DNA of 64,000 nucleotides, from assembly GCF_006345805.1 (NCBI RefSeq), contig NC_043002.1, positions 99,138,001-99,202,000 of the forward strand, given 5' to 3'. Source of the stretch: Octopus sinensis (lineage: Eukaryota). This document shows, piece after piece, positions 2,624 through 61,098 of the stretch; position 1 is the stretch's first letter; the number at the start of each line of letters is the position of its first letter. A model generated the notes under the pieces. It worked only from the letters and a program-made list of their open reading frames with translations, did not search any database and was not told the origin of the DNA. Position numbers and translations under genes: made by a program.

Positions 2624-2685
2624 TGAGTCTGATGAAATGTTATTATGAATCAATTAAAGGAATCATTTGAAACGGCCGTAATCGA
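2624..2685 (+). ncRNA. Degenerate minimal type I hammerhead ribozyme motif
   Basis: CTGATGA 2629-2635, helix II aatg..catt, GAAA 2669-2672, palindromic helix III ACGGCCGT, GTA triplet; helix I is weak. Confidence 0.55.
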
Positions 2686-3959
2686 TTGACACCAGTACCT
2701 CTATTGTTACTCATATACATTTTATCCCCCTATCTCGAAATCTGGCCGTCGTAAATATTATGGACCGTATATTTAATATAATGTACATGTCTGAATATTT
2801 CAACAGCGGATTTCTTCACTCAGGTGGGCCTAATTGTCTACATGCACTGCAAGAATATTATTCCGACCTAACGAGGTGCCTATACATACATACATACATA
2901 CATACTTACATACATGAATACATAAATACATACATACATACACACACACGCACACACTATATATATATATATATATATACAAGCTGAATAGCCTGTCATT
3001 GCCGGGCAATTTTTACAATAGAATGTCATGTAGCGTTTTGTTTATTCCATGTCAGACCATGCCTTCCCCGATACAAATAGGCCTCTTGATGAAGACAGAT
3101 TTGTGCAACTTTTCGCAAAAAACTTCGTCGGGGATTTTTTTCTTTTTTTTAAGCTATATACATGTCTGTTCAACACTTCCACGAGACTTTAGTCATTAAA
3201 ACTTCTTAAAACTTCAGAAGTACTTACAACTATGGTCGACATAATGGTTTGCTTTCGTTTGTTTAATAAAAATTCCTCCTCGTGATCATTTTGCTATCAT
3301 GCAAGAAATGCCAGGTTCCAAATCCTGTTTTCTGATTAGGTAAAATTGATTAAAATTTAAACACCAGTAATATTTTTCTGCAATGTTTCCCTAACTGATA
3401 AATAGCAAAATCATTAAAATTTTGAAATTTCACAATATGTGACAGCAACAGAGAAGAACATCCAAAAGTAGAAAGACACCCAGTTATAGGACGTGACACA
3501 TACACACATACACACACATTTACAAAAGTACATAGGTAATAAAGAGTTTAAAATGGTGTATAGTAGACATATGTATGTATCTATATATATATATGTATGT
3601 GTGTGTGTTTGTGTGTGAGTGTTTCTTTGCGGTGGACAGCAGTAGAGCCACCTACCCCCTTCTCACGTTAAAGCTACGTATTCCTCACAACACCTTTCTT
3701 TCTCTTCCTCGGCGTTTTAAAAGTAGTTGTGTGTATATGCATGTGTGTGTGTATGTTTGCAGGTATCTATGTATGCATGGATCTATGTATTTACAAAAGC
3801 ATGCATGTAGCGTCGCGTGTATATCCAGCTGTATTAACTTTAACATCTCACTGCCACACCATATTTGTTGCTTACACAACGCTGTTCTCGCCTTCCCTGA
3901 TATCAGTCACACTCACTATGCAACGACATTTCCCTAACACTAACACTCTTTGCACCATT

Positions 3960-4146
3960 CTCATGTTATGAAATAATAGCCCAAACTCCCTAATGATCTC
4001 ATTATAAGTTTTTATTGATCCACTTCGCCTGTAATTGAACTGGTGTTACTTTAACATGTATGCAAAGTTTCGTCAAGATTGGTTCACTGGTGTAGGCAGC
4101 AAGATGGTATCAGACAGACCGAGTGTGCGAGTATTTCTAGGATATA
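3960..4146. mobile_element. Possible non-autonomous Helentron/Helitron-like end
   Basis: gcaaagtttcgtcaagattggttcactggtgtagg...cagacagac resembles the subterminal pattern of DINE/HINE-type elements; the resemblance is from memory only. Confidence 0.3.
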
Positions 4147-4871
4147 CCTCTGTGTGTTTTTGTTTCGTGTCTTATCAATTTGATTTGTTTACGTTCCTTT
4201 AGTTAAACTTTTAGGCAAATAGAAAGTGATAGAATAATTACACTATTAACAGACTTTATCAAAAAGAGTAGTGGAGTCAATTTGACCGATATAACTCTTC
4301 AAGGCGGTGTCTCAGCATAGTTGCCTTTTTGTGACTGAAACACGTGGAAACCATTAAAAAAGTTGAAGGTGGAGGATAAGTTTTAAAATTTGAGAATTGG
4401 TATCTAACATGGAAGAGACAACTGTGTATCTATTTCGAATTGTCTTGCATAGTATCTTTCTGATATAGTCACAGAGACGCTCTCGTAACATTCAGCATAT
4501 TTTCTGTGCTTTTAGAACTAGCGGTGCTCATCCTTCACCAACTCTCAATACTGAGGATTTTTTTCCAGAAAGCAGAGATATAAAGAGAGGGGATAGAGAA
4601 GAACCGACATGAGTGTTGGGCTAGTACTTTATTTAACGAAAGGGAATTTTGAATGTTGGTATTTGAACTCAGATCGCAGCCAGCCCCATTCTATTCGCCA
4701 AGCTATCTACCCGACGCTTTAATGATTCCGCCAACTAATTGCCTATCTTAGCATAGTGTAGTCGATTGTAGTTGTCATATTGAAGTAACAGATGCTTATA
4801 TGTACAGAAGAAGTGTTAGGAATAATGTCTGGCCAGAATACTTTTGGAAATATTTTATCTTTTACCTTTTA

Positions 4872-5287
4872 TCTCTTAACTGTTTCAGTCATTAGACTGC
4901 GGTCATGCTGGGGCACTACCTTGAATTTTTAGTTCAAGGAATCGACCTCAGTACTTTTCTTTTAAGCTTAGTACTTATTCTATTATCTATTTTGCTGAAT
5001 CGTTAAGTTACAAATACCATTCAAAATTACAGGGACGTAAACACACCCTCACCAGATGTCAAATGGTGAAGGAGAGAAACACACACGCACACAAACGCAC
5101 ACACACACACACACACATATATATATATACTACGGGTTTCTTTCAGTTTCTGTCTACCAATTCCACTCACAAATCTTTGGTCTGTCAAAGTCGATAGTAG
5201 AAGACTCTTGCGTAAGTTGCCGCGCAGTGGAACTGAACCCAGAACCATGTGGTTCGGAAGCAAGCTTCTTGCCACACGGCCATTCCT
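4872..5287 (-). mobile_element. tRNA-derived SINE family A
   Basis: Reverse complement of the family at 55133-55552 (head gtggcaagaagcttgcttccgaaccacatggttctgggttcagttcc, tail gactgaaacag). Confidence 0.85.
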
Positions 5288-58350: not shown

Positions 58351-58986
58351 TATATATATAATTAATTAAAGGACACACCAAGTATATCTATCTGTTGGAA
58401 ATAACAGACAAAAGTCTTATTTAAATCGCTAAAATACACTCATCATAACAACAGAAATCCATTGTCCGAAGGTAAACGGATGAAGACAATCTCTCAGCAT
58501 GCATTCAAGTATTTGAACTCACGTGGATCGGTTTCTGGACTGGCATAATAATAGCCTCACACTCCTCAGCACGATGACATAATATGATTCATAAGTTATA
58601 AGATTTACATTTCGCTCCAGGTTAGCTGCTGGCGGTATTATGGAGTGTTGCTAGTAGTTCCCAAGCATTGGCGAAGTGAGGATTCTTGTGGTGAGGAATT
58701 GGTGGATAAAAGCATAAAAAATACGAAGAATCTAATGTAATTGGCTGGAGGGAGTGTTTGTGGAATTGGATTAACATCTCCTAATGCGTGTGGAGACCTT
58801 TGATAGCTGGCTATGGCAGTCAAGCGTGAAAGAGTGGTCCTTAGACTTGATGGCTTCTTACACCGACACACATACAGACACACAGATATATATATATATA
58901 TATGTATATACGGACGAAGACAAGCACTCACACAAAATCGACGCAATCACGCACCCAAGCAAATAATACATGCACACACACATATA

Positions 58987-59121
58987 GAGTAATGCCTCGA
59001 TATACGAGTTAATTCGTTCCCGGAGAGCGCTCGTAAAGCGAAAACTCGTAAACAAAATAAACTCCTAAAATGTAAACCTGGGATCCCATAATGTGGGTCC
59101 TCGTAAAGTGAGGTATTACTG
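58987..59121. mobile_element. Pogo/Tigger-like MITE (135 bp)
   Basis: TA-flanked TIRs gagtaatgcctcgatatacgag / ctcgtaaagtgaggtattactg. Confidence 0.7.
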
Positions 59122-59716
59122 TATATATATATATATTATATATATATATATATATATATATATATATATATATATATATGCATGTATATATAATATAGAT
59201 GTAAGTATGTACATATATGTATGAATATATGCATATGTTTTATATATATATATGTATGTGTGTATGCATGTATAAATGTATATATATATATATATATATA
59301 TATATATATATATAATATATATATATATATATATATAGATATATATTATATAAATGGAATAAAAACGCAATAGAGGGTATTAAAACGTTCGGACAGATAG
59401 ATGATACAAAGGTGGACAAGAGAAACAACAATTAGAAGCACAGGTAAAAACGATGAATCTTCTTGGCTTCCTTCATCACTCAAGTCCCAAAAGTCACGAC
59501 CATTTCGGGCAGTTACGCTTGAGATGGATCGATCTGGTTACCTGCCAAAAACTCTAGGCTAAGAGCACTAGACTCGTTTGTAAGAAAGCTAGCGAATATG
59601 TACGGCAACAAAGACAAAAGGAAAATAAATAAACAAAAAGCGCAGAGTATGGTACACAATTACGAATACAAACAAGAAATAACAACAGGCGTCTTTCGAC
59701 TGAGAAAGAATCAAAT
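59122..59716 (-). repeat. Left arm of an inverted duplication of about 600 bp (right arm about 61400-61978)
   Basis: Reverse-complement match that includes the (TA)n tracts. Confidence 0.9.
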
Positions 59717-61098
59717 CGATGCTTGCTACAGGAGGACTGGTAACCATTACAATTTGTAGCGGCGAAAGGTCTGGACGTTGTTTTCTGAGGCTGACCAAAG
59801 AATTTTTATTTTTAGATATAAATGATGTACTCAAGTGTAGTTATGTTTTTAGCTTGTGCTTTTTCCATGATCATACGTGAGTATTTTATTTATATCCCAT
59901 CGAAATTTCTACTGAAGAAGGAATATATCTTTTTTTATAAGATTAAGTCCGAAATTGATTCATATAGATGATAACGAAATTTAAATTTTCTAAAGGTTAG
60001 TTGCCCGTTTTCAGTTTCAATTTTCCTGTAACAAGCGGATTATAAGTGGATAAAACAGTGTATTTGGCTTTAGAATAACCCTCTTTAGCCCTTAATTATA
60101 TGATGTATATTGCAACCGTAACGGTTTTTTTAAATATACTGCCCACGCTTCCTGATGAATTCCTTTGCTGTAGAGTAAGGGACTTCATCCTATATTGCTT
60201 AGCTAGTAAACTCGATGCTTGCTACAGGAGGACTGGTAACCATTACAATTTGTAGCGGCGAAAGGTCTGGACGTTGTTTTCTGAGGCTGACCAAAGAATT
60301 TTTATTTTTCAGATATAATGATGTACTCAAGTGTAGTTATGTTTTTACTTGTGCTTTTTCCATGATCATACGTGAGTATTTTATTTTATTTATATCCCAT
60401 CGAAATTTCTACTGAAGAAGAATATATCTTTTTTTATAAGATTAAGTCCGAAATTGATTCAATATAGAGATAACGAAATTTAAATTTTCTAAAGGTTAGT
60501 TGCCCGTTTTCAGTTTCAATTTTCCTGTAACAAGCGGATTATAAGTGGATAAAACAGTTGTATTTGGCTTTAGAATAACCCTCTTTAGCCCTTAATTATA
60601 TGATGTATATTGCAACCGTAACGGTTTTTTTAAATATACTGCCCACGCTTCCTGATGAATTCCTTTGCTGTAGAGTAAGGGACTTCATCCTATATTGCTT
60701 AGTAGTAAACTCGATGCTTGCTACAGGAGGACTGGTAACCATTACAATTTGTAGCGGCGAAAGGTCTGGACGTTGTTTTCTGAGGCTGACCAAAGAATTT
60801 TTATTTTTAGATATAAATGATGTACTCAAGTGTAGTTATGTTTTTAGCTTGTGCTTTTTCCATGATCATACGTGAGTATTTTATTTATATCCCATCGAAA
60901 TTTCTACTGAAGAAGGAATATATCTTTTTTTATAAGATTAAGTCCGAAATTGATTCAATATAGAGATAACGAAATTTAAATTTTCTAAAGGTTAGTTGCC
61001 CGTTTTCAGTTTCAATTTTCCTGTAACAAGCGGATTATAAGTGGATAAAACAGTGTATTTGGCTTTAGAATAACCCTCTTTAGCCCTTAATTATATGA
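59716..61098 (+). mobile_element. Tandem array of about 2.8 x 497-bp non-coding units, one hammerhead per unit (retrozyme-like)
   Basis: tcgatgcttgctacagg at 59716, 60212 and 60711; CTGAAGA at 59912, 60412 and 60907. Confidence 0.85.
60900..60967 (+). ncRNA. Type I hammerhead ribozyme (best of three tandem copies)
   Basis: atttcta-CTGAAGA-a gga..tcc-GAAA-ttgattcaa-TA-tagagat; near-palindromic helix III ATTGA-T-TCAAT, 7-bp helix I. Confidence 0.72.

Follow-up and report, generated by a model that had tools for sequence, protein, structure and literature searches.

Type I hammerhead ribozymes are known from metazoan Penelope-like elements (PLEs; Cervera and de la Pena 2014, PMC4209133), where many families per genome occur mostly as single dispersed copies with long helix II, palindromic 15.2-16.2 and loop 3 and a proposed action as dimers, and where a variant with a 2-bp helix I is found in D. 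virilis. They are also known from metazoan retrozymes that lack long terminal repeats (non-LTR retrozymes), which consist of non-coding tandem type I units with structured monomers and have autonomous PLEs alongside (PMC7229834; bioRxiv 10.64898/2026.07.22.740005). Statements on published systems, here and below, refer to the cited passages of each source. We analyzed 64,000 nucleotides of Octopus sinensis (NC_043002.1, 99138001-99202000, of a 2.72-Gb assembly; hereafter the window), which are about 35% G+C and microsatellite-rich with a single 100-N gap at 28348-28447, and for which an earlier note had listed about 17 hammerhead motifs from about 10 repeat families. The motifs are type I hammerheads and new members of the published PLE/non-LTR retrozyme class. 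They are real and mostly of a known kind, and the new part is the probable targeting of one ribozyme repeat by an element that carries only open reading frame 1 (ORF1), here called the hitchhiker.

All of the PLE features listed above recur in this genome, with the differences that the palindromes are often 8-11 nt here and that cores with the U4C change are fixed in young families. The retrozyme features recur as well; the units are 496-540 nt here, known from DNA alone, whereas published circles are 170-400 nt. As in the double-hammerhead model (PMC3088659 Fig. S8 legend; PMC6765202), two ribozymes would pair through a palindromic stem III/loop III; unlike in that work, cross-family orthogonality was looked at here, in silico only. 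We consider it likely that these hammerheads sit on non-autonomous Penelope-type repeats in which palindromic helix III pairs neighbouring copies and unit-length RNA is cut, and that the hitchhiker inserted repeatedly.

Hammerhead motifs in the window and in the genome

Every CTGANGA in the window was listed, a type I descriptor was applied, the genome was searched per family where possible, and natural copies were aligned. Minus-strand positions in the earlier note are the low ends of the motifs; core starts are used here. Of the 17 listed sites, 8 look intact, as they combine helices I and II with CUGANGA, GAAA and NUH arranged as in type I (core starts 17240-, 21307-, 37873+, 38413+, 48032+, 48857-, 60412+ and 60907+), and the descriptor together with the alignment of relatives resolved the remainder into two damaged motifs, five decayed copies and two misreadings. 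Roughly 11 hammerhead-bearing families were found, an intact-looking copy being kept in six. Status was read from 2-4 copies found in flanks for family J and for the 31254 relative of family G, and four other copies of family C were found in the flanks of other loci, whereas a genome search with the C stretch itself gave no match, the window copy included. The features are as follows.

2459..2690, unstranded: family A inverted-head insertion; the inverted arm carries the true core, CTGACGA (2525-), and GAA-ACGGCCGT-A (2669-2680+) is the 3' half, CTGATGA at 2629 being a junction artefact
10481..10526, plus: family B decayed hammerhead; relatives have CTGAAGA and helix III ATCACGTGAT
17197..17245, minus: family C intact-looking hammerhead; near-palindromic helix III ACAG-TTCTAGTC-CTGT, H17 at 17202
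17249..17295, plus: family C, motif on the opposite inverted-head arm; its helix I is shortened to 3 bp
18285..18330, minus: family D decayed hammerhead-like motif; loop quasi-palindromic only
21100..21334, minus: family E unit, 3' part; intact-looking hammerhead 21313-21267, helix III ACATGCATGT, H17 at 21273
28497..28503, minus: CTGACGA in an abundant repeat; no hammerhead in this register
30929..31325, minus: diverged (73%) family G relative; decayed hammerhead with core 31254, 50-nt inverted piece
37423..38751, plus: family G tandem array; unit about 540 bp, hammerheads 37873 and 38413 (ACGTACGT), H17 at 37916 and 38456, (TA)n flanks
47505..48371, plus: family H partial tandem with short inverted head; intact-looking hammerhead 48025-48117 (ACAATTGT)
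48369..49790, minus: family I, AT-rich non-coding element of about 1.4 kb; hammerhead 48860-48769 with long helix II, ACGATCGT and 2-bp helix I
50206..50240, minus: family J decayed minimal hammerhead (ACGT)
51509..51647, minus: family K hammerhead, decayed (ACGCGCGT); an (ATT)n expansion lies in its long helix II
59713..61105, plus: family L tandem array; 496-bp unit, hammerheads 59912 (damaged), 60412 and 60907 (ATTGATTCAAT), predicted cut after 60464

Damage consists of an inversion centre that cuts helix I at 17252+ and of a palindrome short by 1 nt at 59912+. Among the decayed copies, the core reads ATGAAGA at 10487+, TTGAAGA at 50236- and CGGATGA at 51643- (CTGATGA in 10 of 12 fetched relatives, mostly with helix I AGAC/GTCT); AAAA replaces GAAA at 18325-, whose relatives have only a quasi-palindrome, and the loop at 31254- is non-palindromic. 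The two listed sites that did not stand are 2629+ and 28503-. At the former, a chance CTGATGA lies at the junction of an inverted head (relatives read ATGATGTAATG, the window reads CTGATGAAATG); the real core of the family lies further 5' and survives only at 2525-, and the nearby GAAACGGCCGTA is a genuine 3' half of the family. At the latter, GAAA and helix III are absent downstream in 3/3 relatives read beyond the gap, and none of the type I, II and III registers, tried by eye, fits.

Strict and medium type I descriptors, in which palindromy was unscored, were compared with 100 local dinucleotide shuffles. The window holds 2 strict matches against a shuffle mean of 0.05 and 7 medium matches against 0.39 (maximum 5), far more than same-composition shuffles in the comparison that the earlier note had proposed; five of the window's medium matches carry exact palindromes, against 0 in all 100 shuffles. 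A comparison sample of twenty 10-kb stretches from 8 contigs (200 kb) gave 7 strict matches against 0.13 shuffled and 11 medium matches against 1.57, and exact palindromes accompany 5/7 matches in the window and 5/11 in the sample versus 4/47 shuffled matches. Window density is no different from that of the sample (p = 0.17 to 1.0), and the window is no unusual hammerhead hotspot. Extrapolation from the 7 sample matches only gives about 9e4 strict motifs per genome (3.6e4-1.9e5), compared with about 2,000-9,000 reported with other descriptors in schistosome, coelacanth and Xenopus (PMC4209133); more than 6000 motifs in 16 families are reported for a coral and 126,247 for axolotl (PMC7229834; bioRxiv 10.64898/2026.07.22.740005). 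The genome appears among the richest in such ribozymes. Chance matching in AT-rich repeat DNA accounts for 2629+ and 28503-, and GAAA-plus-palindrome half motifs number only 14 versus 7 shuffled in the window and 31 versus 21.7 in the sample; but full motifs lie 18- to 40-fold above window shuffles and covary, and as an explanation for the set chance has next to no probability and is already refuted for the intact-looking sites.

Palindromic helix III, covariation and predicted dimers

Helix III/loop 3 is palindromic in most families and near-palindromic in C. Clustering of the hammerhead matches in 1.05 Mb of gathered sequence, which is biased to the searched families, gave 133 distinct matches in 37 clusters, 18 of them with an exact palindrome of at least 4 nt, whereas one shuffle pass gave 14 matches and 0 palindromes; nine of the 37 clusters have a U3-A8 core and look like noise. 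The E lineage alone contains seven exact palindromes (ACATGCATGT, ACATATGT, ACATGT, ACTAGT, ACTGCAGT, ACACGGTGT and ACGTCGT, the last a by-eye reading in a variant core) plus two one-change forms. The result on compensatory helix changes is for family E, where helices I and II covary: in an alignment of 16 natural copies, 7/10 pairs change on both sides, 0/500 shuffles reach 7 and slid controls give 0-3, although the rows were chosen from 30 extracted and are mutually related, and kinship, which can inflate the control, takes weight from this result.

When two copies were cofolded, the predicted minimum-energy structure was a double hammerhead, its helices I and III formed between the two molecules, in families E, H, L and C (4/6 window motifs). 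Palindromic helix III fits dimer folding, and the E-lineage palindromes with their covarying helix I support a double hammerhead as far as predicted folds go. This dimer model is already published for such motifs (PMC4209133; PMC3088659 Fig. S8 legend; PMC7229834), and the earlier note's description of palindromic helix III as typical of dimer-acting type I PLE/retrozyme hammerheads agrees with the structures, with the predicted folds and with PMC4209133. U4C cores (CCGANGA) make up 21/22 of cluster 1, which represents the terminal repeat belonging to the young and intact Hydra-type PLE described below, and 12/19 of family H, and are common also in J, in E relatives and in clusters 11, 16, 25 and 28; U4C is a low-activity variant yet sufficient in a viroid (PMC3088659).

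The earlier note had gone further and read the palindromes as family-specific dimerisation codes, selected to block cross-family activation in trans. This we regard as very unlikely. The palindromes do differ in most families and turn over inside one lineage, and when 26 families or subfamilies are crossed in 650 ordered pairs, at least 4 contiguous helix III pairs can form in only 75. But a palindrome of its own for each family does not strictly hold genome-wide: among twelve 8-nt palindromes, 4/66 pairs are identical between unrelated families, in which no flank homology was found, and random draws from the 16 AC-starting palindromes give a mean of 4.1; sharing is therefore at the chance rate, and it exceeds that rate when the draw is widened to 64 words (P = 0.025). 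Helix I filters more tightly. It reaches 4 pairs in 24 of the 650 ordered cross pairs, and the cross helix I is 0 bp in all identical-palindrome pairs tested (3 of the 4, in both directions). Thirteen cross pairs pass both filters, 7 of them within the E lineage, between sister subfamilies with unlike palindromes, and tandem units 370-540 nt apart would in any case favour pairing in cis. Since helix I is intermolecular too in a double hammerhead, activation of like with like is a predicted by-product of helices I and III together. Cross-family activation is accordingly predicted to be rare and to be explained by helix I, with no sign of selected avoidance, though the small sample allows a weak one. 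The palindrome must stay self-complementary and its identity probably drifts, for example by central slippage (ACATGT, ACATATGT, ACATGCATGT), so families would come to differ without a selected code. In the literature no hammerhead heterodimer codes or cephalopod hammerheads were found, with subscription journals, Repbase reports and supplements outside the scope of the search.

Tandem units, inverted heads and a candidate helper

The units of families G and L measure about 540 and 496 bp. Copies at many loci share 96-99% identity (first-look candidates in the genome number 1440 for G and 1093 for L); the units hold no frame of at least 120 amino acids, and follow one another in tandem with a complete type I hammerhead in each (G at 37873 and 38413, L at 60412 and 60907), an arrangement not seen in I. 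Cut-to-cut monomers of G and L fold better than all 100 of their shuffles (z = -4.3 and -4.4). Both orientations are present at 9/12 G, 12/20 H, 8/20 L and 8/16 A loci, counts that include overlapping loci of shared arrays and are, to their detriment, not independent; for D the figure of 14/16 is inflated by an internal inverted repeat. Partial tandems, an inverted 5'-truncated head and a preference for (TA)n form the PLE signature (PMC8557442), and this combination is found in G, H, L, A, C and E. With about 11 families, tandem units and inverted heads, the genome hosts diverse ribozyme-bearing non-coding repeats, as had been proposed from the window. Contigs of four runs were compared, none of the runs with matches being on record as RNA; the unit-to-unit joint was also seen in the run of unknown kind, and contigs cannot show ends, strand or level. 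At 37680-38220, contigs of runs X1 and X6, guessed to be RNA, have an excess of A-to-G changes on the hammerhead strand (31 and 14 places versus 3 in X20). A-to-I editing would be in keeping with this excess, as may differences between strains. The family L array is bracketed by a 369-bp inverted repeat (99%) of another element at 59353-59719 and 61397-61765.

A GIY-YIG frame in one flank led to 24,219 first-look PLE GIY-YIG candidates, of which 150 were scored, all at least 95%. Three intact 717-codon frames of endonuclease-bearing (EN+) PLEs were found (L183-L185). Like Hydra-clade EN+ PLEs (Craig et al. 2021, PMC8557442), they have RWK, DKT, CxCX5C, a C-terminal GIY-YIG, a hammerhead in the terminal repeat and an end at (TA)n; unlike those described, the type is very abundant and young, has the core CCGAAGA and lacks a sequence link to the window families. 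In L184 the hammerhead, with helix III ACTCAGAGT, lies in 270-bp direct repeats (2678-2947 and 5256-5525). The protein has 836 relatives at E <= 1e-20, which carry PF26215/PF28514; Pfam assigned 0 families to the whole 717-codon protein and gave GIY-YIG an E of 0.017 for its C-terminal part, and a PDB search with it returned nothing meaningful. No window family matches this PLE, which is therefore a candidate helper only. Two apparent links were rejected: beside a G copy (L003), the PLE frame and its own terminal repeat are outside the G array and run on the other strand, and beside an H copy (L030), the frame lies beyond the inverted-head boundary. Two diverged Hydra-type PLE remnants (L231:7311 - and L101:2117 -) are each followed by a hammerhead; in that of L231, the odd palindrome has a centre unlike that of the L184 type.

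Taken together, the tandem array would be transcribed, adjacent hammerheads would swap strands to form helices I and III between copies, and cleavage at NUH would free a structured monomer able to circularise. A PLE reverse transcriptase/GIY-YIG protein would then copy the monomer into (TA)n-rich DNA and leave partial tandems and inverted 5'-truncated heads.

Alternatively, the hammerheads could now be inert, as fossil PLE terminal repeats amplified as satellite DNA whose conservation was inherited from ancestral autonomous PLEs. Most window copies are indeed single, decayed or truncated, U4C cores of lower activity in vitro are common (PMC3088659), and weak activity in vitro is reported in the literature. 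However, G and L copies are 96-99% identical and lie in short arrays over many contigs with many inverted heads, a pattern that recent RNA-mediated insertion fits better than local unequal crossover, and compensatory changes separate young subfamilies. We therefore hold inertness to be rather improbable. Several observations nevertheless tell against active, PLE-driven retrozymes. The Rfam scan of the window returned no hammerhead model among 126 matches at E <= 5. The fit is poorer for families B (2/16 loci inverted) and D (which lacks a clean palindrome), and I has no tandem or inverted piece in 16/16 loci and a helix I of 2 bp that is weak in aligned relatives too; the cofold minimum of G and I is other than a double hammerhead. 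For the one PLE family examined, comparison of the intact PLE with the window at the translated level gave no match, and no homology between a window family and an ORF-bearing PLE's terminal repeat was shown. PLE hammerheads are reported to cleave poorly in vitro (PMC4209133), and 8/9 Xenopus dimers gave no cleavage (bioRxiv 10.64898/2026.07.22.740005).

Active retrozymes remain the reading we favour. Young retrozymes and a young intact Hydra-type PLE occur side by side, and this coexistence allows one to ask which PLE mobilises a retrozyme and whether the hammerhead works in vivo; with the natural compensatory palindromes of the E lineage, both the double-hammerhead model and cross-family specificity could be tested directly. 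Family I (48860-48769 -) stands apart as a young 1.4-kb non-coding element with a 2-bp helix I and no tandem copies.

An ORF1-only element at family E hammerheads

The E unit at 21100-23157 is split by the 1.68-kb hitchhiker, which has one zinc-knuckle ORF, ends in AATAAAGA and is bounded by a 16-bp duplication. The features concerned, together with a sister element used as a comparison case for target choice, are these.

21335..23018, minus: ORF1-only (zinc-knuckle) LINE-like (long interspersed nuclear element-like) element of about 1.68 kb inside the E unit; duplication 23034-23019 / 21334-21319, ATG 22902, stop 21519, three frames
23019..23157, minus: 5' part of the family E unit, which spans about 370 bp in all and wraps in tandem
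40236..42300, plus: second ORF1-only element, in the head of a short interspersed nuclear element (SINE), with a 13-bp duplication

Thirty loci picked by the 3' end of the hitchhiker alone gave 27 sites (three locus pairs overlap). Including that of the window, 20/27 sites lie in an E-type unit, 19-30 nt upstream of the core where measured, and 7/27 are off-target, 3 of the 7 with clear 15-19-bp duplications; the E unit is absent from the 200-kb sample. A fixed target, duplications on and off target and 5' truncations are thus all found. Some truncated copies are joined directly to the host unit's 5' half (L196), and others stack in tandem at the regenerated site (L195, L209, L213). Divergence of element and host is discordant: relative to the window copy, the element is 96% identical and the host unit 73% at L197, and 91-93% and 69% at L220 and L222. 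The sister element occupies the same position in the head of an abundant SINE in 20/20 best relatives (16 by script, 4 by eye).

ORF1 belongs to a family of 12,623 candidates with arrays at about 1.7-kb spacing. Third codon positions change most in 7/7 ORF1 comparisons, a mild sign of purifying selection. Its zf-CCHC match (E 0.0025) is below the cut-off, and clusters of the ZCCHC3-type RBD are leads under 0.9 only. Eight diverged members were fetched (56-77% identity); six have a visible 3' end, followed by a hammerhead unit at 37-46 nt in four and by other sequence in two. Head-to-tail ORF1-only arrays of 3-4 copies at about 1.7-kb spacing occur at C5:62292075-62297752, C20:963835-967804 and C19:17283047-17287022. 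Many arrayed relatives have open frames of 450-470 codons, and in one of these subfamilies the target at the end is not a hammerhead (L278). HAL1 half-L1 elements offer a comparison for an element of this kind.

The closest precedent, by analogy, is Tx1-Mar/SINEU-3 (Kojima 2015, PMC4494074). Shared features are a fixed site in another repeat, tandems around a duplicated target, a non-autonomous member and an expression proposed to depend on the target; unlike Tx1/SINEU-3, the hitchhiker targets a hammerhead-bearing retrozyme and keeps ORF1 only. A Tx1-clade APE endonuclease and reverse transcriptase were not found in the element, which is about 1.7 kb and repeats at about 1.7 kb in arrays; its Tx1 membership is by resemblance. 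A read-through 3' tail into the target was considered and rejected, the shared 3-4 nt being too short to call. We propose that the ORF1-only element was probably moved in trans by a Tx1-type partner and in all likelihood entered E units on many separate occasions, immediately 5' of their helix I, that insertion would mostly leave the downstream hammerhead intact, and that the composite would sometimes be recopied with a PLE-type inverted head.

The contrary view, that an ancestral E unit captured the element once as a passenger and PLE machinery has copied it since without targeting, would explain why several composites are 5'-truncated inside the element with inverted heads (L194, L204) and why ORF1 lineages with as little as 56% identity show the association too. 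Against it stand off-target copies with duplications of their own, truncated copies joined to the host 5' half or stacked at a regenerated site, the discordant divergences, and a sister ORF1-only family at a fixed SINE-head position, and we judge it unlikely. Repeated insertion has its own difficulties: some of the on-target copies stem from recopying of a composite rather than from an insertion of their own, ORF1 has no match at E <= 0.001 among longer proteins, and the autonomous partner was not found.

If repeated insertion is true, the targeted ORF1-only element would extend the range of Tx1 targets (small nuclear RNA genes, microsatellites, DNA and LTR transposons) to retrozymes; no Tx1 or ORF1-only element targeting a hammerhead or PLE repeat was found in the literature, subscription journals, Repbase reports and supplements being outside scope. 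More tentatively, the ORF1-only lineage might be a parasite of a parasite, which inserts just upstream of helix I of the retrozyme, spares the ribozyme, has its RNA set free through transcription of the host array and cutting by the flanking hammerheads, and propagates both by Tx1-type insertion alone and by PLE-type composite copying. In that event, the fast turnover of helices I and III in the E host lineage would provide a naturally occurring allelic series, in a genome that has about 10^5 hammerheads.

Two further LINE remnants lie in the window. The 3' remnant of a zf-RVT-bearing LINE at 32700-33891 (-) ends in AATAAAGA and adjoins a (TCTA)n tract, and a second such remnant at 965-1259 (+) lies beside another (TCTA)n tract; they possibly represent a microsatellite-targeting Tx1-type family. 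ARAGORN found no transfer RNA gene in the window, and a 33-bp minisatellite occupies 43737-44361 (19 copies, 95% matches).

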